Shown here: in pieces, positions 1-62,396 of the stretch
Numbering within the stretch: the first letter of the stretch is position 1
Layout: each line of letters opens with the position of its first letter
Assembly (NCBI RefSeq): GCF_030684315.1
Contig: NC_081360.1
Span: forward strand, 28,503,818-28,567,817
DNA: 64,000 nt
Source: Stegostoma tigrinum
Taxonomy: Eukaryota
Direction: 5' to 3'
The notes under the pieces: generated by a model
Told to the model about the DNA's origin: nothing
What the model saw: only the letters and a program-made list of their open reading frames with translations
Databases searched by the model: none
Translations under genes and position numbers: made by a program

Positions 1-546
1 ACAATGATGTTACCCGAAGGTTGCAGGAGCAGCAACTCATATTCCGCTTGGGAACCCTGCGGCCCAATAGTATCAATGTGGACTTCACAAGCTTCAAAAT
101 CTCTCCTCCCCCTACTGCATCCCAAAACCAGCCCAGCTCATTCCTGCCCCTCTAACCTTTCCTTCTTCCCACCTATCCCCTCCTCCCACCTCAAGCCCCA
201 CCCCATCTACCTGCTAACCTCATGCTGCCCTCTTGACCTGTCCATCCTCCATGGACTGACCTAACCCCTCACTAACTCCCAACCTACACTCACCTTTACT
301 GGCTCCATCTCCGCCTCTTTGACCTGCCTGTCTCCTCTCCGCCTATCTTCTATCCATGTTCTATCTGCCAACCCCTCTCTCCCTATTTATTTCAGAACTC
401 CCTTCTCCTCCCCCATTTTTGAAGAAGGGTCTAGGCCCAAAACGTCAGCCTTCCTACTCCTCTGATGCTGCTGGCCTGCTGTATTCATCCTGCTGTATAC
501 CTTGTTATCTCAGATTCTCCAGCATCTGCAGTTCCTACTATCTCTG
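1..546 (+). mobile_element. 3' end of a Penelope-like retroelement: GIY-YIG endonuclease C-terminus, pyrimidine-rich UTR, pseudo-LTR with decayed hammerhead motif
   Basis: Frame 3..155 reads NDVTRRLQEQQLIFRLGTLRPNSINVDFTSFKI...stop, matching the E..LI..LGTL.P.G.N ending of PLE endonucleases. ~419-446 TTGAAGAAGGGTCTAGGCCCAAAACGTC, then the terminal repeat found throughout the window. Confidence 0.8.
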
Positions 547-579
547 AAACGGTTTTAGAGATGGGCTGTGTGTGCAGTC

Positions 580-1110
580 AGAGTCTGCCTCTAGCTCCTG
601 TACAATATCAAAGTTTGAATTGTCTGGTTCAACCTGCAATAGAAAAGGTGGAGCTGATGTCAAAGGAAAGCATTTATTAACAGGAAGAGAAAAGAATGGC
701 TTTAGACTTCTCAGTTTTTATTTGGGGGAAATTTCTGCTCAAGATACTGGGTGTCAGACTAGCAGTCAAACAATTTGAGGATGGGGTGGTTAGGCAGAAC
801 TTGGAGCTGCCATCTCATGCAGAACCTGATGGATTTTCCAATGATGCTGCACAGGGGTAGGATAGGAGGGGTCAAGTTTAGATTTTTGGTGAAACCTAGA
901 GGTATAGGTATAAGTTTGGAAAGAGAAGTGAAACCCTTGGAGGGGATTCTGTGGCTACAGCTTGAAAGATAAGAGTGGAACCAGGGACGGACAGTCATAC
1001 CAAACTAGGCAGTAGTCAAAAAATGTTTGAGGAGGCTGTTGTTGTCAACCACCCAAGACAGAGTATAAACAATGTAGAGGAAGAGTGCAGCATTGTTCAG
1101 GATGCAACTT
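580..1110 (-). mobile_element. Degraded LINE fragment (probably L2-like)
   Basis: Decayed purine-rich + strand resembling antisense LINE ORF2; no intact frame. Confidence 0.4.
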
Positions 1111-1544
1111 TGGCTTGTTTCAAAAAAAATGCCTCCAATCACATTTTTTGGAAGAGTGTTATCTGTGAATCATTGATTTTGTATAGTACAGGGTTCAATT
1201 CTACTTTAAAGTATAGTTGTATACTTAACCTAATTTTAAGTATGTTTACTACCCATGTGCGCAAATTTAGTCTGATTTTCTAAAGCTTTAGTTCCAAGAT
1301 GAAGCTTTCCTATGCAGAAACACGGGCAAGATAAGCAGTTTGTAGGAAGTTGTTAAAATGATTGCTGGGCTGATTACTGTGTCCATTTCTCCTCTTCACG
1401 CTCCCAAAATTTTTCAGTCTTTGATAATACATCATAGAAGTTCACGAGAGCTGCCAAGGAAATGAGTAGCAGACTTTGATGCTACCCTTAGAAATTGGAA
1501 TTTGAGGTGCTGCAGAATTCTTTGGCACCAGATTTAAGTGGGAA

Positions 1545-1880
1545 TTTAAGAATATGAGAAATAGGAGAATGAGTAGGCCATATAACCTTCTAAGCCTGCT
1601 GTGTGTTCTTTGGATGATCGCTGTTCTTGGGCTTTAACTCCCTTTTCTTGTCTGTACTACTTGAGAAATCCAAAGTCTCAGTTCTTATGGTTAAGCATAT
1701 TGAACAATGAAGCATCTGCATTCTTCAGGAGTAGAGAATTTCAAAAATACACAATCCTTTGAATGAAGTGACTTTTCTTCGTCTCAATCATAAATGATTG
1801 CCACTTATCCTGAGCTTGCCCCCCCCCCCCCCCATTTTAGATTCATGAATCAATGTAAACAATCTCTGACTATCCTATTG
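1545..1880 (-). mobile_element. CR1 LINE 3' end fragment
   Basis: AGAAATAGGAG..GAGTAGGCCAT tail shared with 44750 and 55310 copies. Confidence 0.65.
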
Positions 1881-2123
1881 TGATGAAAGGTACGTAGTTT
1901 TATATAAAATAATTGTTTGAGTTTGGATTTTAAGCTAGTGGCATATGGGTCTGGTCTGTTTTTGCAAAGAAGTTCTAAAATTAATTAAATCAGTCATTTT
2001 GGAACCATGATTCAAACCAGTTTGTAAGGTAGCACATAACTGAGATCATCCTGAATGGCAAAAGGAGATTAGTTTATATTGTTGTGTTTTATGACAGGAG
2101 AAAAGAAACGCTAAGCATTACAA

Positions 2124-2260
2124 GCGGAGGCAATGGCCTAGTGGTATTATCAGTAGACCATTAATCCAGAGACCCAGATAACATTCTAGGGACGGCAGAT
2201 GGTGGAATTTGAATTCAATAAGTATCTGAAATTAAGAGTCTAATGATGACCGTGGATTCA
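2124..2260 (+). mobile_element. tRNA-headed 5' fragment of a non-LTR element
   Basis: TGGCCTAGTGG A-box-like start; GGCAGATGGTGGAATTTGAATTCAATAA shared with ~10654-10681. Confidence 0.55.
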
Positions 2261-2639
2261 CAAGCGCAAGGAGTATGCATCCCCTTCGGACCACAGCATG
2301 ACTGTGAAGGTGATTGTGGCCATGATTGTGTGTTTAGCTCATTCCTGAATAGAACAGGCAATATTGGCAACACTTCCCAGTGTGCTTTTCACTGGCACAT
2401 GGTGCATAGTGTAACTGCATTCCTCCTCGGGGAAACACAGAACAGCAACATTTATAAGTAGACATTTTTTTTATAACCCAAGTATGCATTTGTTAAACTA
2501 AATGTATTGGGATTCAGCTGTGCAACAAACAACTTCGTATTTATAACAATTTAAACATAATAGTAAGGCTCAAGGCACTTCACACAAATTATAAAACAAA
2601 AGCAACAACTGTACAGGGTATAGCGGAAGCACTCTTAAT

Positions 2640-6368: not shown

Positions 6369-6825
6369 CCCAGGGTTGGAGCATTTGAGCTATAGGGAGA
6401 GTCTGAGTAGGCTGGAGCTGTTTTCCCTGGTGCGTCGGAAGCTGAGGAGTGACCTTACAAAGGCTTATTAAATTATGACGGCCATGGATATGGTAAATGG
6501 CCATAGTATTTTGCCCGGGGTGGGGGGAGTCCAAAACTAGAGGGCATAGGTTTAAGATGAGATGGTAAAGATATGAAAAGGACCTAACGGGCAATGTTTT
6601 CATGCAAAGGAAGGTGCGTGTGTTGAATGAGGTGCCAGAGGAAGTGTTTGGGACAGGTACGATTGCAACACTTAAAAGGCATCTGGATGGGCATATGAAT
6701 GGAAATGGTTTACGGGGATATGGGCCAAATACTGGCAAATGAGGCTAGATTTAGAAAGGATATCTGGTCAGCATGGATGAGTTCAACCAAAGAGTCTCTC
6801 TCTGTGCTATATAGCTCTATGACTC
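6369..6825 (+). mobile_element. CR1 LINE 3' end
   Basis: LE.LSY.E.L..LELFSL..R.LRSDL motif; tail TCTGTGCTATATAGCTCTATGACTC. Confidence 0.8.
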
Positions 6826-7990
6826 AATTGCATCATAGCAATTAGGTACAAATTACATGGTATGATAAACGTTGTGATGAAGAATATGAGGAGACCTCGA
6901 TGGTTGGTCTTTCTCTTTGGAGATCCACGGCTGGTCTGCCACTCAAGTCCTTATGGTGTCATCATATTGGGTAGAGCTTATAGTACTCCTCGTCTTTGAT
7001 GACCAGACATGATGGAAAGGCACCAACAGGCTCTAAAAATTAAAGTTTTAAATTGGAGTAAAGCCAATTTTGAAAGTTCCTGCCAAATACTTTCAAAAGT
7101 TGATTGCAAGGGCTATTTACAGTTAAATGACTAATGCAAAGTGGAAGGCTTTCAAAAATGAGATAACAAGAGTTCAACGACAGTATGTTCCTGTTAGTGC
7201 AAAAGGCTAGGCTGGTGGGTATAGGGAATTCCGGATGACTAGAGAAATCGAGACTCTGGTCAAGAAATAAAAGGAGACATACGCTAGGTTTAGACAGCTG
7301 GGATTGAAAGAATCCCTCAAGGACAATTAGGGCAGTAGGAATACACATGAGGGAAATCAGGAGGGCAGAAAGAGGACCTGAGATAGATTTGGCAAATAGA
7401 GTTAAGGAGAATCCAAGGAGATCCTACAAATACATTAAGGGCAAAAGAGTAACTTGGAAGAGAATAGGCCCTCTTAAAGATCAACAAAGCTGTCTATGTG
7501 TGGAACCACCAGACAGAGACAAGATACTAAACAAGTATTTCGCGTCAGTATTTACTGTGGAGAAGGATATGGAAGCTAGAGAACTTGGGGAAATAAATTT
7601 TGATATTTTTAAAAATGTTTCTATTACAGAGGAGGAGGTCTAGACATCTTAAGATACATTAAGTTGGATAAATCCATGAGACCTGATTAGGGAAGTGATT
7701 GCTGGGCTCCTTGCTGAGATATTTGTATCATCGATAGCTGCAGGTGAGCTGTCGGAAGATTGTGGGTTGACTAATGCAGTGTCATTATTCAAGAAAGGTG
7801 GTAAGGAAAAGCCAGCGAGCTATAGACCAGTGAGCCTGACTTCAGTGGTGGGTTCTTGGAGGTATTCTTGAGGGATTGGATATACATGCATTTAGAAAAG
7901 GAAAGATTGACTAGGAATAGTCAACAGTGCTTTGTGTTTTGGAAATCGTGTCTCACTAACTTGACAAACTCTCACTAACTTAACAAAGTT

Positions 7991-8120
7991 TTTTCTGAAG
8001 AGGGGCCTCGACCCGAAACGTCAAACTTTCTGGCTCCTCTGATGCTGCTTGGCCTGCTGTTCATCCAGCTTCACACCGTATTATCTCAGATTCACCAGCA
8101 TTGGTAGTTCCTGCTCTATC
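7991..8120 (+). mobile_element. PLE terminal-repeat insertion inside the CR1
   Basis: Same repeat as 415-546; interrupts CR1 after SCLTNL. Confidence 0.8.
7995..8022 (+). ncRNA. Minimal hammerhead ribozyme motif with intact core (sense to DGK pre-mRNA)
   Basis: CUGAAGA-G-GGG(CCUCGA)CCC-GAAAC-GUC, with flanking UUU/AAA able to form helix I. Confidence 0.65.
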
Positions 8121-9225
8121 CACACGGTAGACTGGTTGGCAAGGTTAGACCACATGGAATCAGGGTAACCTAGCCAATTGGATACAAAATTGGCTTGAAG
8201 GTAGGAGACAGAGGGTAGTGGCGAAGGCTTGCATTTTGGACTGGAGGCCTCTGACCAGCAGTGTGCCACAAGGATCGGTGCTGGGTCCACTGCTATTCAT
8301 CATTTATATAAATGATTTGGATGTGAACGTAGGAGGTATGGTTAGTAAGTTTCCAGATGACACTAAAATTTTTGGTACAAGGACAATGAAGTATTTTTTC
8401 AAAGAGATTGTGGTCAATGGATCAACGGCTGAAAAATGGCAGAGGGAGGTCAGTCTAGATATATGCGGGTATTGCATTTTTGTACAACAGACGGGTAGAA
8501 ATTATATAATTAATTGCCGGGCTTTAGTTGGTGTCGTAGAGCAGAGAGACCTACGGTTTCAGGTACATTATTCTTTGAAGTTTGCATCACATAAAGACAG
8601 GGTTGTGAAAAAGATATTTAGAAAACTTGACTTCATTGCTGAATCCTTTGAGTATTGGAGTTAGGAAGCCAGGTTGAGGTTATATAGAACATTGGTGTGG
8701 CCTCTTCTGATTGTCCAGTTCTGGTTGCCCAGTTGAAGGGAGGACATTATTTCACTGGAAAGAGCTCAGAAGAGATTTACCAGGATGTTGCTGCCTAAGG
8801 AAGGTTTGAGTTATAAAGAAATGCTGGATAGACTGGGACTTTTTCCACTGGAGTGTAGGAGATGGAGAGATGACCTTATAAAAGTCTATAAAATCGTAAG
8901 GGTTATAGATAGGGTTAGTGGATGTGTCTTTTCCCTTGAATGGGGGATTTTAAGACTAGGAGCACATTTTTAAGATGAGGAGAGAGATTTAATAAAGACG
9001 TGAGGGGCAAATATTTTACTCAGAGGGCTGTTTGCATATGGAATGCACTTCCTGAGGCCATGGTTACATTGTTTAAAAGATGTTTGGATAAGTGCGTGAT
9101 TGAGTAAGATTTGAAGGGATATGGAGCAGTCAGGTGGGACTAGTTTAGTTTGGATTATATTCAACATGGTCTGATTGGAACAAAGGGTCTATTTCTGTGC
9201 TGTATGACTCTGTCTATGACTATGG

Positions 9226-10527
9226 CAATGATACCATAAATTGGTGCAGTGTACAGTGAAGAAGGTTACCTAAGAGTACAACGAGACCTTGATCCGATAG
9301 GCCAATGGGCCGAGGAGTGGCAGATGGGGTTTAACTTAGATAAATGGGAGGTGTTGCATCTTGGTAAGGCAAATCAGGACAGGACTTGAACAAAAACAGT
9401 AGTTGCTGGAAACATTCAGCAGGTCTGGCAGCATCTGTGAAGAAAAGTCAGAGTTAACATTTCAAGCCCAGTGACCCTTCGTCGGAGCTGATGGTAGCTA
9501 GGAAAATGTCAGTTTTTATGTAGAAGATAGGGAGGGGGAGGGACTAAGGAGTAAACGATAGATGGGGATAGAGCCCAAAGAGAGAGAAAAGCAGTTGGAC
9601 AGATGAAGGAATTGACTATGATCTGGCTAAGAGGGTGAACAGCTGTTAATGGTGATTGAGAGTGACTAACAATAGGTAGTGTGTAATAGCAGACTAGTAA
9701 GAACTGTCGATTCCCTGCTCCTCTTATGCTGCCTGGCCTGCTGTGTTCCTCCAGCTCCACACTGTTATATCTCATAACCAGGCCTAGTGTGTGGGTAGGG
9801 GTTTAGGACATGGGAGAGTTCACGCCCTAAAATTATGTTAATGGTAGGGCCCTGGGGAGTGTTGCCAAACCAAGAAACCATGAGTTCATAGTTCCTTAAA
9901 AGTGGATTTGCAGATACATGGGATGGTGAAGGCGGCGTTTGGCATGCTTGCTTTCGTTATTCAGTGCATTGAGCATAGGAAGCGAGAAGTCATTTTGGTT
10001 AGGCCTCTGTTGGAATACTGCATTCAATTCTGGTCTCCCTGCTATTGGAAAATTGTTGGGAAGCTTGAAAGGGTTCAGAAAGGGTTTACAAGGATGTTGC
10101 TGGGATTGGAGGATTTGAGATATAGGGTAAGAGTGAATATGCTGAGGCCATTTTCCCTGGAACGCAGGGGCTGACGGGTGATTTTAAAGAAGTTCCTAAA
10201 ATCATGAGGGGCATGGATAGGGTGAATGGCGAGCGTCTTTTTCTTGGGGTAGGGAAGTCCAAAATTAGAGGGGATAGGTTTCAAGGTGAGAGAGCAAAGA
10301 TTTAAAAGGGACCTGAGGGTAGTGTGTATCCAGAACGAGTTGCTAGAGGAAGTGGTGGAGGCCGGAACAATTACAGCATTTAAAAGCCATCCGGATGGGT
10401 ATATGAGGAGAAAGGATTTAGAGAGATATGGGCCACATGATGGCAAATGGGACTAAATCAGTTTAGGATAATTGATCAGCATGAGCAAGTTAGATCTGTT
10501 TCTGTGCTGTATAACTCTATGACTTTA
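9226..10527 (+). mobile_element. Second CR1 3' fragment, split by a PLE insertion
   Basis: LQRDLD..G.WA.EWQM.FN..K then resumes ~9836; ORF 9902-10174 RPLLEYCIQFWSP. Confidence 0.85.
9389..9835 (-). mobile_element. 3' end of a second PLE family, with a nested first-family fragment at ~9705-9773
   Basis: AAAACAG..GTTGCTGGAAA..CAGCAGGTCTGGCAGCATCTGTG repeat shared with 29074, 46501 and 59575; purine-rich UTR on +. Confidence 0.7.
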
Positions 10528-11100: not shown

Positions 11101-11720
11101 CAACGATGTTACAGATTGTGATTGAACACAATTCTGCTGCTGTTGATGGCCCCCAGCACTTCTGAATACTCTTGAGTCTTACTTTCCTAGAAAGTTTCAA
11201 AGCTCATCCAATTCAGCGCTGTGTTAGTACCAAGCAAGAAAATCGTGGGTAGACTTAATGTGAACGTGGGTCTTTGTCACCATAACGACTATGTGCAGTC
11301 ATTGGCACAATGACTGTGACAGTGACTCCTACCAAAATTGTCATGGATAGATGCAACATTTGCAGGTAGATTGATGAGGAAATGGTCCAGTACAATTTTC
11401 CTTCTTGATTCTCTCACTCCCCCTGCTGCAGGCCATTCTTGCAGCTACGTTGTTTAAGACTGACCGGCTCGATCAGTAGTGGTGTAGTTAAGTCATCGAA
11501 ATTCCCGAACTAGAGTACATTCTGTGTCCTTGCTGTGCTCAGTGCATTCTTGAAGACGTGTTTAACATTGGGATAAATCAGCAGAAGATTTCTTCGATTC
11601 TATTTGACCTGATGCCATGAGATTTCATTGGATCCACCATCAATGTTGAGGACTCCCAGAGCAACTGTCTCCTGTTTGTATAATACATTGCCAAACTATG
11701 TTGTGAGTCTGCCCTGTAAG
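11100..11720 (-). mobile_element. Degraded LINE endonuclease fragment
   Basis: Similar to 47000-47600. Confidence 0.5.
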
Positions 11721-11777
11721 TGGTAATGTTTCACACAATCATAATCTCAGAACCATACCTTACTGACAACCCATTGT

Positions 11778-11903
11778 GATGAAGTCACCAGGTTTGAAAC
11801 ACTAACTCTCCTTTCCTTCACACAGATGCTGTGAGACCTGTTTGAGTTTCTCCAGCAGTTTCTGTTTTTGACCCAGGTCTCTAGCAACTGTGGTTCTTTG
11901 ATT
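11778..11903 (+). mobile_element. Decayed PLE terminal repeat (second family)
   Basis: GATGAAGTCACCAGGTTTGAAACAC...CACAGATGCTG..AGACCTG..GAGTTTCTCCAGCA. Confidence 0.6.
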
Positions 11904-12434: not shown

Positions 12435-15400
12435 AGACTGTAAGACAATAAGACTTAGCTGCAGAATTAGGCCATTTGGTCCAACATCTCATAGAGGAGC
12501 TACACTCTGGTTCAATAAATTTCCACTCATCCCAGTTTTACAGTATCGTTCTGAGGCTGTGCCCATGGGACCTAGTCTCTCCTACTAATGAAACACTTTT
12601 CCACATCCAATCTATCCAGGCCTCTCAGTATTCTAAAAGTTTCAATCACATCACTCCTGATTCCTCCTAAATTCCATCAAATACAGACCCAGAATCCTCA
12701 GTTGCTCCTCATATAACCAGCCTCTCATCCATGGGATCATCCTTGTAAACCTCCTCTGGACCCCCTCCAAGACCAGTACATCTTTTCTTGGATAGAAAGT
12801 TAAAAGCTGCTCACAATGTTCCAAATGCGGTCTGATAAGACCCTTTTACAACCTCAGCAGTTCTCCTCTGCTCTTGTATTCCAGCCCTCTAGAACTCAAT
12901 GCCAACATTGTATTCGCCTTCCTAACTGCCACGTGAAATTATGAATATTAACCTTAAGAGAATACCGAACTAGGACTCCCAAGTCCCTTTATGCCTCAGA
13001 TCTCTCAAGCCTTTACCATTTAGGAAATAGTCTACACTTATTCTTCCTACCAAAGTGTATAACCTCACACTTTCCAACACTGTATTCCATCTTCTGTTTC
13101 TTTGCCTGTTCTCCTTACCTGTCCGTGTCCTTCTACAGACTCCTGCTTCCTCAAAACTACTTGTTCCTCCACCTATCTTTGTGTCATTTGCTTTCATTTC
13201 TTACATCCAGATCAGTAACGTGTAACAAGTAGTTGTGATCCCAACACTGATCCCTACCGAACTCCACTAGCCATCAGCTGCCATCCTGAAAAAGTTGCTC
13301 TTATCCCGTGGTCTGTCATCTAGCAGTCACCCAATCCTCTTTCCTAGCTAGTACCTTGCCGTTAATATAGTGGGTTTATTTAGCAGCCTCCTGTATGGCA
13401 CCTTGTCAAAAGTCTTCTAGAAATTTATAGATCACATCTACTCTCTGTCCTTTGTCTAACTTGCTCATTACCTCCTCAAAGAATTCTAACATTTTTCAGG
13501 GATGACCTCCCCTTGTTGAAGCATTATTTTACCATGTGCTTCTAAGTGCTCCACAATCTTATCCTTAATAATAAACTGTAAAATCTTGCAAATGACTGAG
13601 GTCAAGTTAACAGACCTACAGTTTCATATTTTCTGTATCCCACCCTTCTTAAACGGGGATGTTACATTAGCCATTTTGCAATTCTCTGAGATTCCAGTGA
13701 TTCTTGAAAAATCGCTACCAATGCCTCTACAATCTCCTCAGCTATGTCCTTTGCAATTCTGGGATGTAGTCCATCTGGTGCAGGTGATTTACCCAACTTC
13801 AAACCTTTCATCTTCCGCAGCACCATCTCCTTAGTGATATCCACTAAATTCACTTCTGCCTCAGACTCTTTTGAAGTTCTGGTTTGCTGCTGGTGAAATC
13901 TGATACAAAGCATCTGTTCAGTTTCTGATTACTGCTTGGAGGCCTGTACATAACTCACATCAGGGTCGTTTTCCTTTGCGGTTCCTTGTTTCTACCCATG
14001 CGGATTTTATAACTTTCAACCCTTTATCACTTCTTGCTATCAATTTAATGTAATTTCTTACTAACAAGGCAATCCCACCCCCTCTGTCCATTTGGTAGAG
14101 CATGTATTCTTGGATATTTAGTTCCCAGTCCTGAACCCTTTGCAGCCATAGATCATAGAACATAGAACATAGAAAAGTACAGCACAATACAGGCCCTTCG
14201 GCCCACGATGTTGTGCCGCGGAATAATCCTAATCCAAAAATAAAATAACTTAACCTACATTCCCCTCAATTCACTGCTGTCCATGTGCATGTCCAGCAGT
14301 CGCTTAAATGTCACTAATGACTCAGCTTCCATGACTACCACTAGTAAACTATTCCATGCGTTCACAACTCCCTGGGTGAAGAACCTCCCTCTGACATCTC
14401 CTCTCTACCTTCCTCCTAACACCTTAAAACTATGACCCCTCGTGTCAGTCAATCCTGCCCTGGGGAAAGGTCTCTGGCTATCGATTCTATCCATGCCTCT
14501 CATTACCTTGTACACCTCAATCAGGTCACCTCTCTTCCTCCTTCTCTCCAGAGAGAAAAGTCCAAGCTCAGTCAACCCCTCCTTGTAAGACAAGCCCTCC
14601 AGTCCAGGCAGCATCCTGGTAAACCTCCTTTGCACCCTCTCCAAAGCCTCCACATCTTTCCTATAATAGGGCGACCAGAACTGGACACAATATTCCAAGT
14701 GTGGTCTCACCAGGGTTTTGTAGAGCTGCAGCATAACCTCGCGGCTCTTAAACCCGATCCCCCTGTTAATGAAAGCCAAAACACCATATACTTTCTTAAC
14801 AACCTTATCCACCTGGGTGGCAACTTTGAGGGAGCTATGCACTTGAACACCAAGATCCCGCTGTTCTTCCACACTGCCGAGAATCCTGCCTTTAATCCTA
14901 TATTCAGCATTTTTAAGTTCGACCTTCCAAAATGCATCACTTTGCATTTATCCAGGTTGAACTCCATCTGCCATTTCTCAGCTCAGCTCTGCATTCTGTC
15001 AATGTCTCGCTGAAGCCTGCAATAGCCCTCGATACTATCAACGGCACCCCCAACCTTTGTGTCATCAGCAAACATACTAACCCACCCCTCAACCTCCTCA
15101 TCCAAGTCATTTATAAAAACTACAAAGAGCAGAGGCCCAAGAACAGAGCCCTGTGGGACACGACTCAGCACTGACCTCCAGGCAGAATACTTACCATCTA
15201 CAAGCACTCTCTGCCTCTTGCCAGCCAACCAATTCTGAATCCAGACAGCCAAATCACCCTGTATCCCATACCTCCTGACTTTATGAATGAGCCTGCCGTG
15301 GGGAACCTTATCAAATGCTTTGCTGAAGTCCATTAACACCACATCCACTGTTCGACCCTCGTCAACCTGTCTCGTGACTTCCTCAAAGAACTCAATAAGA

Positions 15401-20960: not shown

Positions 20961-21728
20961 ATGATCTGCTGTTTTTGACTGTTAATTGGCATTAATTTCT
21001 TCAGTAGACTACAGTACCATAGCTGGGATATTTCTGTATGCTGTGCTCATTCCTTCAATTGTTGTGAAGGGAATCTAATTGTCTGAAGAATATTATTTGT
21101 GATGCTGAAACCTTTGGGAACTTTTCACAACAATGACTGCAAACACTTCACTCTTGCCTTTTATCAATGATAAATTGGGCTCCTTCATCATTAAGGCTTG
21201 GGAAGGTTTTGGATTAGCCACTAGCTGCTAGATATTTGATTGTCTACCTCCATCCATGATATGGCATGACTGCCTAGCCTTAATCTAACCTGTTGGCTGT
21301 AGGATTGCTTTGCTGTTTCCGTTGAAAAACTTTTCACGCTGTAGCTGCAAAGCATTATCTACTGGAGTGACAATTTTTGATAAATAAGATGCTACTGTCC
21401 CTCTAAGAAGACATTATATTTTGTACAGATTTGAACAACGTTGAGTATGAGTTTGTGCTGGTGATGTGCCAGGTGCATAGGCGTATGTGCCTGTGACTAA
21501 CTATTTGAATGGAACAGCCTTCAGTTGCTCTTATAAGGCAGAGTATGGACTATACCTAACCAACCCAACCTTGCAAAATGTCTGCTATAGGTGTTGTTCA
21601 ATGAATGACAGCATTTGCTGAACAACACTGAGTATGCCAATAAGTTACACTAGAAACCATTTAAGATATTGGTTGAGCTTTATGTGGCTCAATCATGCTT
21701 GGTAGAGATGATGTACATTCATATGTAT

Positions 21729-42778: not shown

Positions 42779-42881
42779 AATCTGAGATTTCTGAAGAAGG
42801 TTCTCGGCCCAAAACGTCGTCTTTCCTGCTCCTCTGCTGCTTGGCCTGTTGTGTTCATCCAGCTCAACACCTTGTAATCTC
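42779..42881 (+). mobile_element. PLE terminal repeat with mutated hammerhead
   Basis: CTGAAGAAGGTTCTCGGCCCAAAACGTC, preceded by a short inverted AATCTGAGAT. Confidence 0.75.
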
Positions 42882-43184
42882 ATTTAGGAAATTAAAGGTT
42901 TTTTTGTGATGATAAATGCTAAAAGTTTTGGTATATTTAAGGAAATAAACTATTCCTTAAATAATACTCAATGGATCATATGTAAATTTGCCTTACAACT
43001 CGAGAGAAAATCAATCGTAAATAGACTTTCACATTCAATGAGTCTAACCGCAACACTAAGTAAAATTTGATAAGATTTCTATTCATAATCCTGGCTTTTG
43101 TATACATGAACAACTTTTTGTAGCTTTTCCCGCAGAAGGATTTTTGCTTTTATTAAAGAATGAAAGAATAATTAGAATATTTTT

Positions 43185-43950
43185 TAATTCACTCATGGGG
43201 ACGTGGGCATCATTGGCTGGGCCAGTATTTATTTCCTCTCAGTAGCTGCCTTTGAAGGTGGCAGTGAGCTGTCGTCTTGAACCACAACAGTTCATTATAG
43301 GTAGACCCACAATGCTGTTAGTGAGGGTGATCCAGGGTTTTGAACCAATGACATTGAAGGGCCAACCACCTATTTCTAAGTCAGGATAGTGAGTGGCTTA
43401 GTGGAAAACTTACAGATGGTGGTGTTTCCATGTATCTGCTGCACTTGTCCTTCCAAATAAGATTGGCCATGGGGTTAGAAGGTACTGTCTTATGTAGTGT
43501 AGATTAATTTCTACTTGCATCCTGTAGTCAATAGTGGAGGGAGTAAGTATTTATCGATTGTGGTACAGTCAAGCTGGGCTACTTTATTCTGGATGCCGCC
43601 AAGCTGCTTGAGTTTCTTCAGATGATTGGTGAAGTATTCTGTCACACACCTGACTTATGTCTTACAGATGGTGGACAGGTTTTGGGGAGTCAGGAGGTAT
43701 GTTATTGCTGCAGGATTCCTAGCCTCTGACCATCTATTGTAAACCCTGTATTTATATGACTAGTCCAGTACTTGCTAATGTTAACCTCCAGGATGTTGAT
43801 AATACAGGATAGTAATGTCAAGAGGTAATGGTTGTAATCAGTCTTTTTAGATATGATCATTGTCTGACGCTTGTGTGGCACCAATGTTACTTACCACTTG
43901 TGAGCCCAAACTGGCTATTGTCCAGGTCTTACTGTATTTAGGCATGAACT
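43185..43950 (-). mobile_element. LINE 3' part (non-CR1-tail family), continuing at ~46320-47600
   Basis: ORF 43702-43884 homologous to 20466-20798. Confidence 0.65.
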
Positions 43951-46500: not shown

Positions 46501-46597
46501 ACACAAACACAGAAATTGCTGGAAAAGCTCAGCAGATCTGTCGACATCTGTGAAGAGAGATTAGATTAACATTTCGGATCCGGTGACCCTTCTGCAG
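46501..46597 (-). mobile_element. Second-family PLE terminal repeat
   Basis: TSD ATTGGCTG at 46493-46500 and 46598-46605. Confidence 0.75.
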
Positions 46598-47257
46598 ATT
46601 GGCTGCAGCCTGGTACCCATGATGCTGAGAATCTCTGGAGGAGGCCAAGGTGGATCATCGACTCGGCACATCTGGCTGAAGAAGATTGTCGCAAATACTT
46701 CAGCTTTATGTTTTGCACTAATATGCTGACCACCGCGCCTCCTACACCCCCCCCCCACCCACCAACCTTTCAATGAGTTTGGGGGTTTTTGTCTCCTCCT
46801 GTAAGTGAGTTAGTTGTTCATCAGAATTCACGACGGAATGTGGCAGGATGGCAGAGTTTACACCTGATCTGCTGGCTGTGGAGTCTCTTTGCTCTGCCTG
46901 CCACTTTCCTGCTTATGCTGTCTAGCATGTAACTACTGTGTTGTTAGATGCCAGCCATAAGCTAATTCTGTTGACTCCGCATGATATCAAGAAATAGCTG
47001 CCAGGTTTGCTGAGTTTCTGATTTTTGATTTCCTGGCTTGATGGTCATGGCAGAGAGAGAAATATGCCGAGCCATGTGGCTGCAGATTGTACAGGTGTAT
47101 AATTCTGCCACAGCGCTTGACTCATGGAGCCTCATTGGACGCCCAGTCTTGAATTGCTGGATCTGTTTGGTTTATCTCATTTAGCACACTAATAATTCCA
47201 CAAAGCACAATAAATGGTATTATCAACAGGAAGATGTGGACTTTGTCCCCACAAGGA

Positions 47258-47339
47258 CAATACAGTGGTTACTCTTCCTAATATTGTCACAGATAGGGGT
47301 CAATGTGGTGGTTACCCTTCCTAATATTGTCACAGATAG
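47258..47339. repeat. Tandem duplication, period 43 nt
   Basis: GTGGTTAC(T/C)CTTCCTAATATTGTCACAGATAG twice. Confidence 0.85.
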
Positions 47340-49003
47340 ATGGATCTGCAGCAGGCAGATTGGTGAGGATGCATTACTTCCCTCTTGATTCCCTCACTAC
47401 CAGCCGCAGACCAGGCTGTGGTTCTGATGGGCATTCTGCACCTCCGTGCTTCCTTCAAGCAATGATTTGCATGTGAGAGTACTGATTCCTCAGCCGCGGG
47501 TTTGGCTGGTTATCGACAGAAGATTTTTGAGGTTCCCCTGCCCGTATTTGACTTGAAGCCATGAGACTTCATGAGATCTGGAGTTAGAACTCTCAGGTTA
47601 CGGATGTGACAATCAACAATTGTCATCAGTCAACATGGTACTTCTAATTCCATGTTTTTATTGAATTCAAAATGCTCTCCTATGGCTGCAGTCAAACTCC
47701 AGAACATTGACTGGGTGGCTAGAGAACAAGCTCAGCACAATACAATTACACCATTGCTTCCTTTCTTTGCAATAAAGTTCCTAATTTTATCACAAGTTTT
47801 TGAGGATTTTAGTAGTATTTTACAGACACATAAATTACAAAAGAGAACTCATATAGGGATAAAGGCCATTAAAGATTGCAAACCCTGCTCCTCAGTAATG
47901 ACACTGAAATGACCGTCTTGCTGGGCGAGATTTATATTGTGGGTAGTGATGTAACATGAAGACATCAAAAAAAAAGTTATTTAAGAATGGAAAAGCGGGA
48001 GATAATTAATAAACTCATCAAATATGGACAGCTTAGAAACACTGATCTGAATGGATTGTCTATTCAACCGTAGCAGAAGATCACATTTGAATGTTATAAA
48101 TGGGTTGCATCTATATATATGAAAAGAATGAAATAATTTGGGAAATGGAGTCGTCCAAGAGAGAAAAACATGACAAAATGTAAGCAGAGGTTGGCCCACA
48201 GAACGAGTATTTCTGGTTGACATTTTCAAGCATATGAAAGGGTTGATAGGTAGAATGTATTTCAAATTAAGGTGGAGAGTGGAACTAATATCCACAAATT
48301 TTTAAAAAAGTCACTCATAGTAGAATCAAGAATTCGTGAGAAAACTCTTCACTAGGAGAATGATGGCAATGTAAAACTTAGCACCAAGAAGTAATTGAGG
48401 CAACAAGCATCGATTCATTTATGGATGAGCACATAAGGACTCAGTCATAGAAGGGTTGCTGATGGAGTTAGATGCAGAAGTGTGGGAGGAGCTCGTGAGC
48501 AAGAACACTGGTTTGGACCTGGTGGACAGAATAACCTGTTTCTGTGTTGCAAGTGCCATGTTTTGCTTTGTTAGAGCTTGTACATAAGCCATATTTAGTG
48601 TTGAGTAAGAGCTACATTCATATCCTTTGTTGTTCAGCTTTACTGCCTATAATATAGTTTAGGAAATTTATGGAAAATATTGCACAATCACCTCTAACAA
48701 TTTGTGAATGCTGTGCATGCAAAAACATTGTCTTAGTGTGTTTTTAATATTTCAATTGCATTTATATTCAATGGCTTCGGTGATGGCGTATGGTTATAAT
48801 TATGATCAAAGAGCAGAATATCTTCTATGACTCAGTCAGCACTGGGATGGAGTCTCTAACCAGAGGTGGTTAATCACCACAAAAGATTATTATTTCTGTA
48901 AAAGTAGGTATAAATATACTTAAAGTTAATTGGTACTTGACAAACTGATACAATGCACGTTTGTTGTCAATAGTTTGTATTTATCAGGCTATTTTTTTTA
49001 CAG

Positions 49004-52299: not shown

Positions 52300-53450
52300 T
52301 GCAACCAAATGTATTGACCATTATAAGGTACTAAAAGACAAATAAAGTGAGAAAATTAAAATAACATGAGGTTATAGAAGTCAATAGAAATTACCAGAAA
52401 AACTAATACAACTAAAGGTTGGACAATGGTGGATGTATTGGTTTAGAACTTCCAGAATTCCTTGGATTCCAGAATATTTGGAAGTTTCTAAACCTATCAT
52501 TTCAGAAAGATCAGAGAGGGAATATAGGGAAATGTAGGCCAGTCAACTTGATACCTAGAGTGGGGAGAATTCCTGAATTTGTTTTTAAGGATGTAGTAAT
52601 AAGGACTTTGGAAAATCACTGTACGACGAGGTAGTGTCAACATTATTTTAGAGAAAGGTTAATTGTACTTTAAAAATTCATTAAAGGTTTTTGTAGTTCT
52701 AACCAACAGGCTAGATAGATAGAGATAGTGGGAACTGTCGATGCTGGAGAATCTGAGATAACACGGTGTGAAGATGGATGAACACAGCAGGCCACGCAGC
52801 ATCAGAGGAGCAGGAAAGCTGATGTTTTGAGTTGAGACCCTTCTTCAGAAAAATTTTTCCAGCTTCACATCGTGTTATGTTAGGCTAGATAGATGGATTT
52901 CCAGAATAGATTCAAATACATGCCAGACATTAGATTGTTGGATAATATTCAAGTTTGTGGAATTGAGGGTAGTGTATTAGAATGTACTGAGAATTGGTTT
53001 ACAGTGAGAACAGAAATAAACAGTTATTTTTGTTATTGGGAGTATAATTAGTAGAGTTATGAAAGGGTCAGTGCTTAGACTTCTACCATTTGCAATCTGT
53101 ATCAGTGAGTTAGATGAGAGGAATATTGTGGCTTTGTTGTTTCCTCTAAAGGCTAAAACCTCAGAATAAATTTTCAGGCTTTTAAGAATGAAATATAGAG
53201 AAAATTCTTTGATTTGAAGTTTGTGACTATTTGGAATTCTGTATTCAGGTGTGCTGCGAATGCTAAGTCAATGAATATATTCAGGACAGAAGTCTTTACA
53301 TTTTTGGGCACAAAGGAAATCAAAAGATGTGGAGATAGTGTGGGGGGAAGAAACAGATTGCTGTAGATGTTGAGCTGTGATGGTACTGAATGGCAGACCA
53401 GACTAGGTGGGCCATGTGACCAGTATGCTTTCTCCTATTTCTTATATCCT
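52300..53450 (+). mobile_element. Degraded CR1
   Basis: ORF 52419-52634 (GKCRPVNL) and CR1 3' UTR. Confidence 0.6.
52721..52881. mobile_element. PLE terminal-repeat asymmetric hairpin
   Basis: TSD AGGCTAGATAGAT at 52708-52720 and 52882-52894. Confidence 0.85.
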
Positions 53451-54090: not shown

Positions 54091-54110
54091 GAGCTTGTGT
54101 CCTTATCATA

Positions 54111-54453
54111 GATAACAAAGTGTGAAGCTGGATGAACACAGCAGGCCAAACAGCATCTCAGGAGCACAAAAGCTGACGTTTCGGGCCTAGACCCTTCATC
54201 AGAGAGGGCGATGGGTTGAGGGTTCTGAAATAAATAGAGAGAGAGGGGGAGGCAGACCGAAGATAGATAGAGGAGAAGATAGGTGGAGAGAGTTGCAGTG
54301 GGAGAGAGATTCCCTGAGGTTGGTCCGGAGGGAGGAGGGTAACTTCTTCAGGTTAGGCATCCCTGGAAGAGGCTTTGCAGTGAGGTTAAAATTGTGATCA
54401 GAGATCATGGGAACTGCAGATGCTGGAGAATCCAAGATAACAAAGTGTGAAGC
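54111..54453 (-). mobile_element. Internally deleted mini-PLE with direct terminal repeats
   Basis: GATAACAAAGTGTGAAGCT at both ends; contains internal segment, 3' UTR piece homologous to 330-415, and hammerhead. Confidence 0.8.
54175..54202 (-). ncRNA. Minimal hammerhead ribozyme motif with intact core
   Basis: CUGAUGA-A-GGG(UCUAGG)CCC-GAAAC-GUC; CU/AG helix I start. Confidence 0.7.
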
Positions 54454-55057
54454 TTTGCTTTTACTGAGGTCTTAATTTGCTGTCACAACTTCAAGTATTT
54501 GAGTGTCTGAAAAGTGTGTTGGTATACCCTAAGATCAGAAAAGGTGTTCTATCTATGCAGCTTCTTAAACATGAGCTGGAAAGATTATCCTGATGAGTTA
54601 GTCATCAATGTATTTAATTTGGAGCCAGAAAGACACAAAATTATTTGCAAAATTAGCTAAATATTTATAATTGCATTTATACCTAATCTGGTTCCTTTGG
54701 TGAAAAGTGTGAATTTGGGTGTTATTTTCAATGCAATGTTTGAGGCAGTAACAAAAGGTCATCTTCCTTCATCTATGCGAAAGACACTGTTAATCTTTTG
54801 CGTGTCCTCAAGGTTTCAGTTCAACGAAAGCGAAACCAACATGAAACCTATGAGAAGTAATCTTTGTCCATCCATAGATTAATTTTGCTAAAGTGAACTG
54901 GTATCATGGTCAGTGGCAGAGAGGGGACATTATTGGGCACAGAAAGGCCAGCATGTCAGTAACCTGACATGATCCTACTTTTACTGAGGGTACTTTGAAG
55001 ATGAGCAAACAGAAACCAACAGTGCTGTCGTGTCCGTAACTTGAATATATTAAAAGT

Positions 55058-55266
55058 GAAGAGATAATGGGAACTGCAGATGCCACAGAGTCCAAGATAA
55101 CAAAGTGTGAAGCTGGATGAACACAGCAGGCCAAGCAGCATCTCAGGAGCACAAAAGCTGATGTTTCAGACCTAGACCCCTCTGAAGGGTCTAGGCCCAA
55201 AACGTCAGCTTTTGTGCTCCTGAGATGCTGCTTGGCCTGCTGTGTTCATCCAGCTTCACACTTTGT
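55058..55266. mobile_element. PLE terminal-repeat hairpin insertion
   Basis: ~85-nt inverted arms meeting in the ribozyme; TSD TATATTAAAAGT at 55046-55057 and 55267-55278. Confidence 0.9.
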
Positions 55267-55309
55267 TATATTAAAAGTCAATACAGTTTCATTCATGCAA
55301 CTGTTAAAT

Positions 55310-58600: not shown

Positions 58601-59574
58601 TGTCTGTTATAATTTATATGCCCACTGCAATTAATCTGAATGCAAAAGTGAACGCTTGACAGCGTAAACAAACCCATGAAAAAACACATTCCCAGAGTAA
58701 AGTGCATTAAAACTGTTGCAGAAATAAAGAAGTAAAACTCTAATGGCTAACGTCAAACAGGTCATTAGAGAACTCTGCTTGATCAAGGCAGAATTCTGAT
58801 TTCCAGTGTGCACAGTTCATCTAGACAATCGACATGCTGTGGCAATCCCTTATTTGCATGTTAGGAATTGCAGTGCAGGACCACATTTAAAATATTTTCC
58901 ACTGGTCATGAGAACATTAGCATGACTTTATTTTTTGCACCATAGTCAGGAATTGACTGTGATTTGGGCACAGATCCATGAGCCTAATTCTTGAGGTTCA
59001 TTGATTTCCTGCAAGGCTTGTACACTGCTAGTATTGCTTTGCAAAGCTTACTTGTGTTTATTAATGTTCTCAATTCTCTGTTATATTTTGGCAAGGAGCA
59101 ATGTAATAAGAGGTGCGCATATGCTAAAACAAAGCCTGTGTTCTTCCTACATGTTAAGTATCTATCACTGCAGTTTAGGTTGTGAAATTTACATATATAT
59201 ATTTCAATCAAATTTATTTCTGAGTTTGGATTTTTGTACTTTGAACTAATAGCATATGCGTGCTCTGAGGGGCTAAAGGGTGTATCCGGTGATTAATTTG
59301 TAAGTATTTCTGCAGCCGTAATAGTCTTCTAAAACAGTTTGAGACAGAGCCTCCATAAACTAATGGATTTTTGTTTACACTGCAAATTAACAAAGTACAC
59401 AGGGTAGTGTAATTGACTTTATGGTGAGTGATTCTGGGTTTTTTTTTAAACTTAGAGGGCAACACCCACAACTTGGAGAGAAACCTTTCAGTTTTAGCTT
59501 GGGCGGAGTTCTGCAATGTTCTTAGCTAAAGATGGATGCAGAAAGTAATTGTTCCTATCATAGGAAGAGTATAC

Positions 59575-59782
59575 ATAAACAGAAGTTGCTGGAAAAGCAC
59601 AGCAGGTCTGACAGCATCTGTGAAGAGAAATCAGAGCTAACATTTCGGGTCCAGTGATGCTTCCTCAGATTGGACCTGAAACATTAACTGATTTCTCTTC
59701 ACAGATGCAGCCAGACCTGAGTTTTTCCAGCAAATCCTATTTTTGTCTCTGATTTACAGCGTCCAGAGTTCTTTTGGTTTTT
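59575..59782. mobile_element. Second-family PLE terminal-repeat hairpin
   Basis: Arms GCTGGAAAA..AGGTCTG..GCATCTGTGAAGAGAAATCAG and its inverse; junction at CTGAGGA core. Confidence 0.85.
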
Positions 59783-60314
59783 ATGGGAAGTATGTAGTTT
59801 ATGTTTGCTTTTTAAAAAAATTACCTCAGACTAAGCAGTCTATAATAGTTCCAGATTCGAGGTGTTTGAGTAAAATGCAGAAGGACTTATTTGAAGCAGT
59901 GAAAATTTTACATTTGGGTATATGAAGGTGCTGGCATAGGCTGAAAGATTGTCTGGACTGGGAGCTTTTATCACAGTTAGGCTAAACGTATTGAAATGAT
60001 AGAGGAAGCGATTCTCTGCAGTGTGAGGACTGCAACGAGTGTTTGTGGGATTGACTTGATTATATTTTTACTGTGTTTTGAAATGTTTTAAGTGTGTGCT
60101 CTTTATAAATATCTTTATTTATTCCACTGTTTCTGCATTTCTTTTCCATAATAAACTCCACTGTCAACCAAAATCTGCCATATTGCATGCTTATGTTGCA
60201 ATGAGCATCCGCCTCACTAAAACCAAAAATGAAGATCTTTCAAGCCAAAGTTCTGTCTGAGCTCTAGTTCATCGAATAATAGCATCAGTTGGTGTCATTA
60301 ATGGAATCCAAAAA

Positions 60315-60490
60315 GCCAAACCCTATACCTCTGTTGTTGAGGATATATGTTGCTTATTTTGAAATCCTTTTGTATGACCGATAGCCACAGGGAAGGTGCT
60401 GGAAGACTGGAGGTTCGCTAATGTGGTGCCACTATTTAAGAAAGGTGGTAAGGAAAAGTTAGCGAGCTATAGACCGGTGAGCCTGACATT
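60315..60490 (+). mobile_element. CR1 RT fragment
   Basis: EDWR.ANVVPLFKKGGKE..SYRPVSLT, similar to 7720-7845. Confidence 0.8.
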
Positions 60491-61414
60491 GAATCATCCA
60501 GATGGATTTAGCATGCAACATGTACTTTAAGTATTGTTCCTAAAGTATCTCACTGTTGAGATATAATATAATACAGGTAGAGTGTGTTGTTAGCTCAAAT
60601 TTGACAAACTGTGTTTGAAAATGTTATCATGATTGCACAGGGCCACTACAGTTCTTCAGTACAGATGTAAACTGCTGAGATCTCGTGTTCATACTATATA
60701 TTACTTGTAGAAATATTACAGTACAAGTGTACTAGTGACTATGATTGCATGACTGCCATGAATATTTTAATCATTTGCAGAACATCTTTTAAACAAACCT
60801 CAAGACACAATGCATCACTCAGCTGTGATTATTTGAAGCTCTTCTGGTTATTTTTCATAGCACATCTTGTAAAGATTGAGATAAAAGGGAAAAAAAAGAT
60901 ATGTAGGCCTTCACAGAATATGTTAAATGAGTCTTTGAACATCAACAATCCTTAAGACACTGCCTGGGCCCTGCAGAGAGTAAAGGGTTTGTTTTAATTG
61001 TCTTTCAAATGCCTTTTCTTTTGACTAAATCTGTGCTCATTTGTAAGACTGTGTTTCTGTAGAATTCTTTCGAACTGCATAAAGTCTGCCCACTATGATG
61101 TGTCCCTGGAGTCAATTCATTTCATTCCTTTAACCAAGTTGCATTTATATAAAATCTTTACCATGGTCAAATTTCATGAAGGCTGTTGATCAAATACTAA
61201 ATTGACTGAGATCCAATCAGCTAAAATTAAACCAAGCTAATTTTCTAATCTCTGGGAAACATTTATGTTTTGGTATTTATGGAGAATATATGAATTGTTA
61301 TTAATATTTGAGACATTAGTATGTATTCAAAATAATTTTTCATGTTCTGGATTGTTAGCATTCCATACTCAAAATCTTTATAACAGTGTAATAATTTGTG
61401 GGGTTTTTTTTTAG

Positions 61415-61500
61415 GTTAAACACCTTTCGTGACATACCTGATTTCCGAATCCTGGCGTGTGGAGGAGATGGGACTGTAGGATGGATCCTGGATTGTATTG
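61415..61500 (+). CDS. DGKG: Diacylglycerol kinase exon with ATP-binding GGDG motif
   Basis: TTTTTTTTTAG|GTTA...ATTG|GTATTT; 86 nt, phase 2-1; [28 protein letters not shown]. Confidence 0.95.
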
Positions 61501-61913
61501 GTATTTCCAATATACAGTAAAAGATTAATGTGAAATACTATTGTATTTTGTTTTTTTAATTCTATTTTTCACTCAAACTTCTCTTAACAGTGTAAAAACA
61601 ATGCTTTTGTTTAACCATAGTACATTTTGTCTGGCATATTAAGTAACATTGTTAATTGGCCATTTTTGAAACTACTTTGATACCCAGTACATTGTAAAGA
61701 CAGTACCACTCCGCATATGTAGCTCTAAACAGAGAAGCTAGTAGATGTTTCATTGTAAAAGTCTAAATGTGTATTTAGGATTCTCACTCATGTTATAGTT
61801 CGAGATAGTTGGTTTATAACCTGCCATTGTGGTGAAGAGCGGTCTATTTTTCAGCCTGCTCTTCCAGCTTTCAGTTTTACCTGAACTAAACCTATCTCTT
61901 GTCATTATTACAG

Positions 61914-62003
61914 ATAAAATCAATCTAGCAAAACACCCACCTGTAGCTGTATTACCATTGGGTACTGGAAATGATCTGGCTAGATGTCTGAGGTGGGGAG
62001 GAG
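61914..62003 (+). CDS. DGKG: Diacylglycerol kinase exon with LPLGTGNDL motif
   Basis: TTACAG|ATAAA...GGAG|GTAAGA; 90 nt, phase 1-1; (D)[44 protein letters not shown] and AVLPLG favour gamma over beta (recalled paralog sequences). Confidence 0.95.
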
Positions 62004-62250
62004 GTAAGAGTGAAACCCAATATCTACTGTAGATCCAATAAAATGTTTTGCCATTAAGCATGGTTCTGGTGGCTCTGGCTATGTAAACAAAATGTGTGGT
62101 CCAAACTTAAGCAAATGCGTTTCTCCAATTAAAAATTCCCAATAATGAAAATGCCTCTATTATTTTGCTCTAACAAGTAACAATCTATTCATATTGAGGA
62201 GTGTGCATTGCTGTTAAGGAGAGAGCTTGCTCCTTTCATGTTTTGCAAAC

Positions 62251-62396
62251 ATAACATATTGTGGAGCTGGAGGAACACAGAGGGCCAGTTAGCATCAGAG
62301 GAGGGAGAAGGCTGACGTATCGTGGTCAGGACCCTTCTTCCTCCTGTCCCACTGAGTTATGTCTGACTACAGCATCGACAATTCTTACTACCTCTG
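62251..62396. mobile_element. Old PLE terminal-repeat insertion with inverted end
   Basis: Decayed left arm through GACG..ACCCTTCTTC, then inverted tail. Confidence 0.6.

Follow-up and report, generated by a model that had tools for sequence, protein, structure and literature searches.

We analysed a 64,000-nucleotide (nt) stretch of the Stegostoma tigrinum genome (contig NC_081360.1, positions 28,503,818 to 28,567,817; the window, whose own numbering is used below) that carries many short insertions with all or part of a hammerhead ribozyme motif. The explanation that we consider probable, at about 70%, sees in them the dead end pieces of autonomous Penelope-like elements (PLEs), whose reverse transcriptase (RT) would start inside the element's own RNA at +65 and +100 and run off its capped 5' end near -32, carrying the uncut hammerhead along. 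Element coordinates are counted from +1, the first base past the predicted hammerhead cut after GUC or GUU; on this scale C3 of the hammerhead core is at -28 in subfamilies A and B and at -30 in subfamily C. Judged from sequence, the junctions of related copies likely record both the start of the element RNA and the cut made by the ribozyme in vivo.

A preliminary description of this DNA had claimed about 20 PLE-terminal insertions, most of which contain or end in the motif. Self-BLAST together with profiles made from window copies identified 19 events with 27 terminal-repeat arms between them, whereas shuffled DNA gave no arms; the expected total of 20 was reached with a two-arm fragment of 72 nt at 2898-2969. 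By hand count the core is whole or partial in 16 of these. Target-site duplications (TSDs) were clear in eight (11-17 base pairs, bp) and weak in two (8-10 bp), consistent with the claim of independent insertions, and were not found in the other ten. A descriptor comprising the core, a helix II of at least 3 bp, the palindromic helix III pair and a helix I of at least 2 bp passed exactly the three sites singled out beforehand: 7995-8022(+) and 54175-54202(-), described as intact, and 38790-38817(-), described as near-intact, which has a G.U at 10.1-11.1. An Rfam search of the window gave no hammerhead family among 13 matches at an E-value of at most 10; the minimal form scores below the Rfam models. 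The density, put earlier at roughly one copy per 3 kb, was real but not the mark of a local swarm. Background was sampled by requesting 120 stretches of 10 kb at round coordinates, of which 109 existed, all on large contigs; these 1.09 Mb held 279 events with a total of 353 arms, or one event every 3.9 kb, so the window is typical of the genome. Extrapolation to the 3.2-Gb assembly gives approximately 8e5 events. Another B-type terminal fragment lies about 1.4 kb to the left of the window (L021:8501-8610).

The derivation from PLEs, also part of the preliminary description, was borne out by the coding sequence to which the repeat is attached. In all 16 loci chosen for long open frames among matches to the GIY-YIG end, the repeat lies directly 3' of an RT/GIY-YIG open reading frame (ORF), and searching upstream yielded full-length elements. 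One of these, L200, has an open frame of 1,096 residues between two hammerheads 3,684 nt apart. This ORF matched Pfam RVT_1 (E 2.9e-5) and GIY-YIG (E 0.0042), both under the Pfam cut-off; inspection showed DKG, YIDD and GIY-YIG words, and the atlas neighbours of the protein had the same domain make-up at 0.98. A PDB sequence search with the intact ORF gave no matches. The window copy at 1-546, which had been linked to a GIY-YIG C-terminus, starts about 135 nt left of the window, and its positions 3-131 are 86% identical to residues 1022-1064 of the intact element. The L200 protein also has a CX4CxxC linker. A CX2-5CxxC linker between RT and endonuclease (EN) is given as absent in Penelope and Poseidon (PMC8557442), and by the definition in that source the motif therefore excludes these two groups and points to a Neptune-type PLE; Nematis also has a linker motif. 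The hallmarks of EN-bearing (EN+) PLEs are present: pseudo-long terminal repeats (pLTRs), partial tandems, an inverted upstream copy, a 30-40-nt tail and TSDs. At approximately residues 245-305 of the L200 ORF, N-terminal to the RT, is a variable tandem peptide repeat (ADGTPPT-like), which changes ORF length among intact copies.

The sampled arms fell into three groups, A (young), B (older) and C (oldest), with median identities to a reference copy of 93, 83 and 78%. 5' ends could be placed for 318 of the 353 arms, leaving out 19 that were unassigned and 16 cut by the end of a locus or reference. An extension of more than 60 nt upstream, into the 3' untranslated region (UTR) or the ORF, was seen in 69 of the 318. 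The short copies are nested with these longer arms and are therefore the short end of one series of autonomous PLE 3' ends, not a separate class. A fourth hammerhead family, D, is absent from the window (L085:6618-6651, L100:6587-6620, L195:6281-6458, L171:2680-2713); it has a 6-bp helix II, a 3-5-bp helix I, 3' ends near +43 and +80, and an ATG at the start of helix II, like the anole Poseidon element.

The preliminary description had instead seen a very abundant, protein-free repeat class. The abundance held up: an exact young 30-mer has 90,316 genome matches and a looser intact-core pattern 110,894, with none for reversed controls. It is the separate class that did not. The corresponding explanation, that the short copies are an independent non-autonomous family (a ribozyme-bearing short interspersed element or a retrozyme) amplified from its own masters through hammerhead-processed RNA, gains from the excess of events and 30-mers over exact ORF-start 35-mers (1,255 genome matches), from the existence of tandem units of 320-340 nt in up to nine laps, one unit of which is in the window, and from the PLE derivation of vertebrate retrozymes (bioRxiv 10.64898/2026.07.22.740005). 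We nevertheless judge it highly improbable. The short copies share the subfamily markers of the autonomous element in which they are nested, and most lack the upstream TATA-like box, including those that start at -32. Nor is the motif conserved in excess after insertion. Post-insertion differences in A affected 33 of 991 core positions (3.3%) and 218 of 6,661 flanking positions (3.3%), and in B 43 of 730 (5.9%) and 324 of 4,931 (6.6%); the inserted core is not protected and decays as fast as its flanks. Selection on inserted ribozymes was set aside as an idea when the within-family conservation of the core vanished on removal of subfamily-polymorphic columns. Finally, array junctions are mostly locus-specific, and 19 of the 20 window events are not tandem units of 170-400 nt that each carry a type I hammerhead; 54110-54454 is the only retrozyme-like unit in the window, and arrays of this kind exist elsewhere in the genome.

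The motif itself is well kept between the subfamilies. In column majorities of copies unselected for the core, every conserved position of CUGANGA, GAAA and the NUH cut triplet is retained in A, B and C, and only N7 (U, A and G) and H17 (C, C and U) differ, so the core is conserved across families. Of the features of a minimal type I hammerhead, the extra nucleotide before G10.1 and the loopless palindromic helix III (15.2-16.2), both noted earlier, are present, as is the G10.1-C11.1 pair. Helix II falls short of the typical 7-8 bp: A and B have 4 bp, closed in A by a palindromic loop, and C has 5. Against a typical 4-5 bp, helix I is down to 2 bp in A (in 37 of 42 intact copies) and in most of B, while C has 4 bp. 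Its pairs are U-A and C-G in A (the exact context in 35 of 49 long copies) and U-A with U.G or U-A in B, so that pair 2.2-1.2 varies between subfamilies as U-A, U.G or C-G. In an alignment of 26 rows the helix pairs beat all 500 shuffles for percent paired and all slid registers, a result that related sequences can give without structure and that comes from rows picked by pattern. Rows of alignment A1 were picked by a core pattern, which makes its invariant core columns circular, and only helix pair counts were used from it; the family D rows had been chosen for helix I too.

By folding, the motif is predicted to form an inactive hairpin, with its core base-paired to the cut site. This minimum free energy (MFE) structure is favoured over the hammerhead fold by about 8 kcal/mol in A and by about 14 kcal/mol in the 7995 copy; the hairpin begins at -28, and its 3' base (+2) adjoins +1. 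The predicted homodimer is also inactive, a duplex through the palindromic helix II. Because helix I has 2 bp in A and B and the predicted inactive hairpin is about 8 kcal/mol lower, a motif that is active in cells may still show no cleavage in an assay on naked RNA. Poor cleavage, also of dimers, has been described for metazoan minimal hammerheads (PMC4209133), and the anole PLE ribozyme cleaves only with its protein (PMC11167929). A 2-bp helix I fits the described variant forms, since the Drosophila virilis hammerhead has one as well (PMC4209133).

The ends of the copies are concentrated at a few positions. In A and B the 3' ends pile up around +65 and +100, and in C around +69 and +105, a spacing that matches the 30-40-nt tail between the two RT start sites of the anole element (PMC11167929). 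Among the 318 placed 5' ends, 99 fall in -34 to -26 (11 per nt), 10 in -38 to -35 and 8 in -60 to -39 (0.36 per nt), and the left side of this edge is abrupt in all three subfamilies; local alignment may shift a called end by 1-3 nt. A TATA-like word lies 30-31 nt upstream of the edge, TATTTAT in A and B and CATAAAA in C, where it keeps the same spacing though the upstream sequence is otherwise unrelated to that of A and B. The edge sits at sequences that we take to be initiator-like, by the usual promoter consensus. Contigs from four public runs of one study, possibly of the assembly's own source or individual, were used as a consistency check and not as independent support; in three of the runs the top loose-end position was -29. 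We also considered the edge as a splice acceptor (in C, CAG|TT after a pyrimidine tract) and dropped this reading, as inspection of the matches listed showed no common exon upstream of copies ending there.

A second source of information came from jump junctions, at which the ORF start rejoins the terminal region. In the window, 54110-54454 joins the ORF start (+212) to the 3' UTR (-119) by microhomology, and units of this kind are frequent where a copy has the ORF start. An exact word in the +195 to +209 region has 4,410 genome matches; in the first 30 of these, 27 rejoin the terminal region, 2 continue into the ORF and 1 stops. Near -115, 590 matches rejoin, with many different junctions. 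A first pattern set of 58 matches represented 55 events, three duplicates being merged, and was tallied by hand: 42 junctions at -34 to -25, 8 at +1, 1 at +2, 2 in -24 to -1, 1 ambiguous and 1 at -53. A second pattern, whose set was confirmed by script, added 14 new events, 11 at -34 to -30, 3 at +1 and none between. Combined, 53 of 69 junctions lie at -34 to -25 and 11 exactly at +1, with 2 clear cases in -24 to -1; positions +3 and +4 are empty. Of the 53 edge junctions, 21 carry an untemplated G ahead of the element, compared with none of the 11 at +1 (Fisher p 0.008), and of 25 edge junctions with any untemplated base, 21 end in G. G is likewise the last base in each of the 12 joints to -32, -30 or -26 listed from the run contigs; these are the best-supported rows, and they overlap between runs. 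By analogy with L1, where an untemplated 5' G is attributed to copying of the cap (PMC9341517), the G at edge junctions is likely a copied cap. The prediction that later laps or partner arms never pass the same 5' end held in all 15 second-pattern loci, with one apparent exception in L259 that may be a second adjacent insertion. Identical stops in partner arms or second laps were seen in L258 (+1), L271 (+1), L259 (-33), L207 (-181), L211 (-172), L222 and L223 (-96) and L228 (-113).

Templates beginning at +1 make up about a sixth of the junction sample and, from the position of the junctions, were probably produced by the ribozyme. The alternative is that in A and B the motif is no longer a working ribozyme and is kept as a promoter, leader or RNA-dimerisation sequence, the +1 junctions coming from an RT pause at the hairpin base or from a nuclease. 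The 2-bp helix I, the roughly 8 kcal/mol that separate the hammerhead fold from the MFE, the predicted inactive homodimer, the predominance of uncut templates and the failure of eight of nine Xenopus dimers to cleave in vitro all suit a dead ribozyme. The junctions themselves have single-nucleotide precision, with 11 events at +1, one at +2 and none at +3 or +4; pair 2.2-1.2 changes between U-A, U.G and C-G while only N7 and H17 vary in the core; and the 2-bp helix I has its counterpart in D. virilis. We therefore regard the loss of ribozyme function as unlikely. One junction, at L202:8015-8146, connects a 3' end that coincides exactly with the cut site (-1) to about -42; it is a single candidate for the end of a 5' cleavage product. 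Head-to-head junctions at +1 were set aside because they are confounded by an AGCT palindrome.

Insertions with two arms head to head showed a largely uniform composition. In 62 of 71 pairs one +65 arm is combined with one +100 arm (expected about half, p 4e-11), and arm lengths are coupled, with 10 long-long, 2 mixed and 59 short-short pairs. Within A pairs the two arms diverge at 4.5% of sites, compared with 8.4% when arms are paired at random, and a 50:50 diagnostic site at +48 was concordant in 31 of 31 A pairs, a similarity to which time-structured subfamilies or gene conversion could contribute. TSDs of at least 8 bp flank 94 of the 242 events and 6 of the 240 controls; among young two-arm events the figure is 30 of 34, with a mode of 15-17 bp. 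The run contigs contain many tail-to-tail +65/+100 joints on opposite strands (for example L201:3388-3430), which suggests insertion at the ends of existing copies.

Ordinary 5' truncation would explain the edge and the second arm differently: RT would stall at structure (the long hairpin or a C-rich tract), and fold-back self-priming would make the inverted arm. Self-priming at palindromes has been proposed for inverted PLE junctions (PMC3846280), several two-arm junctions here are symmetric or lie within the helix II palindrome, and the inactive hairpin begins at -28. However, fold-back requires the tailed arm to be the longer one, and it was longer in 31 pairs and shorter in 26; C shares the edge without the C tract or that hairpin; and stalling leaves the untemplated G unexplained. 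This makes a stall an improbable account of the edge.

Under the mechanism that we propose, transcription from a TATA/initiator promoter would begin at the edge of helix I and yield a capped RNA, near whose 5' end the protein would bind. It would nick both target strands approximately 16 bp apart; each nicked strand would then serve as a primer for cDNA copied from the same RNA molecule, one from +65 and one from +100, and the two cDNAs would be joined head to head. Most cDNAs would run off the cap after 95-135 nt, which would account for a swarm of short copies with the hammerhead mostly whole or cut from the 5' side, while long copies would need read-through or unit-length RNA. Jumping of the RT from the RNA 5' end to the 3' end would give mini-units and retrozyme-like arrays. 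A minority of RNAs would be cut by the hammerhead beforehand, probably with assistance from protein or dimerisation, which we propose because helix I is 2 bp. The ribozyme would matter in source elements and their RNA and not in scattered copies. There is precedent in the anole, where the PLE protein nicks and extends both strands, two internal start sites define the tail, and uncut RNA is the template (PMC11167929). In its strongest joint form, this mechanism has the capped start at the first hammerhead base (-32), a ribozyme with a 2-bp stem cutting in the germ line so that some RNAs, a minority, lose their capped leader, a single RT dimer priming the same RNA twice, at +65 and +100, to give the inverted copy and the tail, and end-to-end jumps making retrozyme arrays de novo thousands of times; for all of this together we see an even chance.

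Several observations weigh against run-off from a capped, occasionally cleaved RNA. The start site, cap and cleavage are all read from DNA junctions, and in the anole study no RNA sequencing (RNA-seq) read had either of its ends at the cut site (PMC11167929). In D. virilis, Penelope uses an internal promoter that lacks a TATA box, and it has an intron whose end is at helix I. No significant excess of G ahead of the 5' end was seen in ordinary insertions (9 of 25, p 0.21; 9 of 20, p 0.06), and there is no 5' peak at +1, where -2 to +3 holds 8 of 318 ends, partly through the AGCT palindrome. Among 298 cores in sampled loci, a 3' end at -1 was seen just once, and one of the run joints to +1 has a terminal G. 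The search patterns, with their 61-nt gap, restrict the junction set and inflate the share at +1, and with the predicted hairpin base next to +1, an RT stall could mimic cleavage.

The tandem arrays allow a further distinction. Arrays of up to nine laps repeat one junction, which is common to both arms, in units of 320-340 nt; the junctions are mostly locus-specific, and three arrays (L204-L206) share one. For these multi-lap arrays only, covalent RNA circles, cleaved from a two-ribozyme donor, ligated and copied by rolling-circle reverse transcription, could replace linear end-to-end jumps. Identical junctions over up to nine laps and in both arms, the junction shared by three arrays and a published model (PMC4209133, PMC7229834) speak for circles. 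Ligation cannot yield cap-type G junctions, one of which occurs in two laps, and one lap pair differs at its junction (L249). Circles are possible, and somewhat less probable than not as the source of the arrays; both circle copying and linear jumping may operate.

The individual insertions in the window illustrate these classes. Among the B-type copies, 1-546(+) is a PLE 3' end with the GIY-YIG C-terminus (3-131), the 3' UTR, a TATA-like TATTTAT at 384-390 and a putative start at A415; its hammerhead at 419-446 is broken (C3>U, G12>A), and the copy ends at +100 with a tail and without a TSD that we could find. The terminal fragment 7990-8115(+) begins near -31, directly after a short tandem repeat at 7951-7987, and carries the intact hammerhead 7995-8022 (helices I and II of 3 bp each), again with no TSD found. 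The fragment 9711-9777(+), from +3 and without a core, adjoins head to head an old C-type copy at 9388-9710(-), which runs from -239 to +71 with a decayed core. Further B fragments are 42787-42882(+), which begins at -32 with a G in front, has G12>A and no TSD found; 52721-52872(-), from -31 to +100 with a short inverted arm, a decayed core and a TSD of at least 13 bp; and 62250-62395, from -26 with a decayed inverted arm and a weak 10-bp TSD. C-type fragments are 11771-11899(+), with a decayed core and a tail; 29070-29163(-), from about -26 with an 11-bp TSD; and 46503-46598(-), from -31 with a weak 8-bp TSD. Two-arm C insertions are 59573-59784 (+69 and +107 arms, core decayed, no TSD found) and an old, decayed, C-like one at 29778-30000, whose right boundary is approximate.

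A-type two-arm insertions include 21725-21900, with head-to-head +105 and +64 arms, a partial core and a 12-bp TSD; 32400-32527, with +100 and +62 arms, no core and no TSD found; 38724-38942, with a 16-bp TSD, the near-intact hammerhead 38790-38817(-) and its junction within the helix II palindrome; and 55060-55272, with +100 and +66 arms, partial cores and a 12-13-bp TSD. The A insertion 30473-30734 has a 17-bp TSD and an inverted +65 arm followed by a sense arm ending near +97, which contains an internal jump junction at approximately 30612 (+27, an extra GAG, then rejoining at -26). The fold-back at 30539-30640 matches Rfam MIR6136 at 45.8 bits (gathering threshold 99); the MIR6136 consensus resembles an inverted hammerhead half-core and may derive from a PLE fold-back. 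The A fragment 33541-33600(+) covers +6 to +65 without a core and has a TSD of at least 12 bp. The tiny insertion 2898-2969 consists of an inverted tail arm and a short arm, without a hammerhead, in a 12-bp TSD. The retrozyme-like mini-unit 54110-54454(-) runs from +45 to +212 (the tail and the ORF start, with Met at 54360), is joined to -119, continues through a TATA-like sequence (54236-54230) and the intact hammerhead 54175-54202 with its 2-bp helix I, and ends at +65, with no TSD found.

Other repeats share the window. A near-full-length long interspersed element (LINE) at 14405-17563(-) has RT, endonuclease and GDSL-esterase frames; we take it to be CR1-type from its domain order. Further fragments lie at 6373-6824, 7722-9010, 9996-10524, 44747-45707 and elsewhere. 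Dispersed repeats of other families were found at 31364-31569, 35667-35880, 39102-39273 and 43331-43453, and in the sets 25092-25272 and 43953-44133, 11334-11421 and 47323-47401, and 37576-37656 and 46600-46680. Short tandem repeats lie at 47243-47334 and 62681-62723, besides that at 7951-7987.

Each structural element of these insertions has already been described, though the helices are shorter than in the typical minimal form; what the analysis adds is mechanistic and comes from the junctions. With the minimal hammerheads of PLE pLTRs (PMC4209133) the motif shares the core, the extra nucleotide, G10.1-C11.1, the loopless palindromic helix III, the pLTR location and the occurrence mostly as single truncated copies, but helix I has 2 bp (A and B; 4 bp in C) instead of 4-5 and helix II 4-5 bp instead of 7-8, and the 110,894 intact-pattern matches compare with about 4,000 in coelacanth and 9,000 in Xenopus. 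The Poseidon element PAc of Anolis carolinensis (PMC11167929) likewise has two internal RT starts spaced by a 30-40-nt tail, extension of both strands and uncut RNA as the main template. In contrast to PAc, whose ORF starts in helix II, the ORF here starts about 135 nt after the cut site, the protein has the CX4CxxC linker, and DNA junctions suggest in vivo cuts of which no sign was seen in the PAc RNA-seq. EN+ Neptune PLEs share 5' truncation, partial tandems, the inverted upstream copy, the one-end tail and the TSD (PMC8557442, PMC3846280), and TATA and initiator sequences have been noted in a rotifer pLTR (same sources); relative to those descriptions, the pairing of one tailed with one untailed arm, the shared stop points and the cap-like G are quantified here. 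Non-LTR retrozymes (PMC7229834, bioRxiv 10.64898/2026.07.22.740005) also form 320-340-nt tandem units with a type I hammerhead each and originate from PLE ends. Here, however, the ribozyme is minimal and not canonical, the units include the ORF start and are a small minority of copies, and most junctions are peculiar to one locus, suggesting that such units have arisen de novo again and again. One chondrichthyan is given as retrozyme-positive, with a mean of 363 bp (bioRxiv 10.64898/2026.07.22.740005). In the literature covered, which leaves out most subscription journals, we found no description of shark PLE hammerheads, a cap-G edge, a +1 junction peak or pairing on one RNA.

This genome holds about 1e5 intact motif copies, comparable to the 126,247 in the far larger axolotl genome. 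The role of the hammerhead in endonuclease-bearing PLEs has been called unclear (PMC8557442), and our results bear on that role, on the origin of an inverted copy with a one-sided tail and on the birth of retrozymes. They also provide an intact young element and give exact positions that can be tested, namely -32 for the start, +1 for the cut, and +65 and +100 for initiation by the RT. If correct, our interpretation would amount to in vivo evidence for a minimal PLE hammerhead whose helix I has 2 bp, as well as to a route from PLEs to retrozymes.

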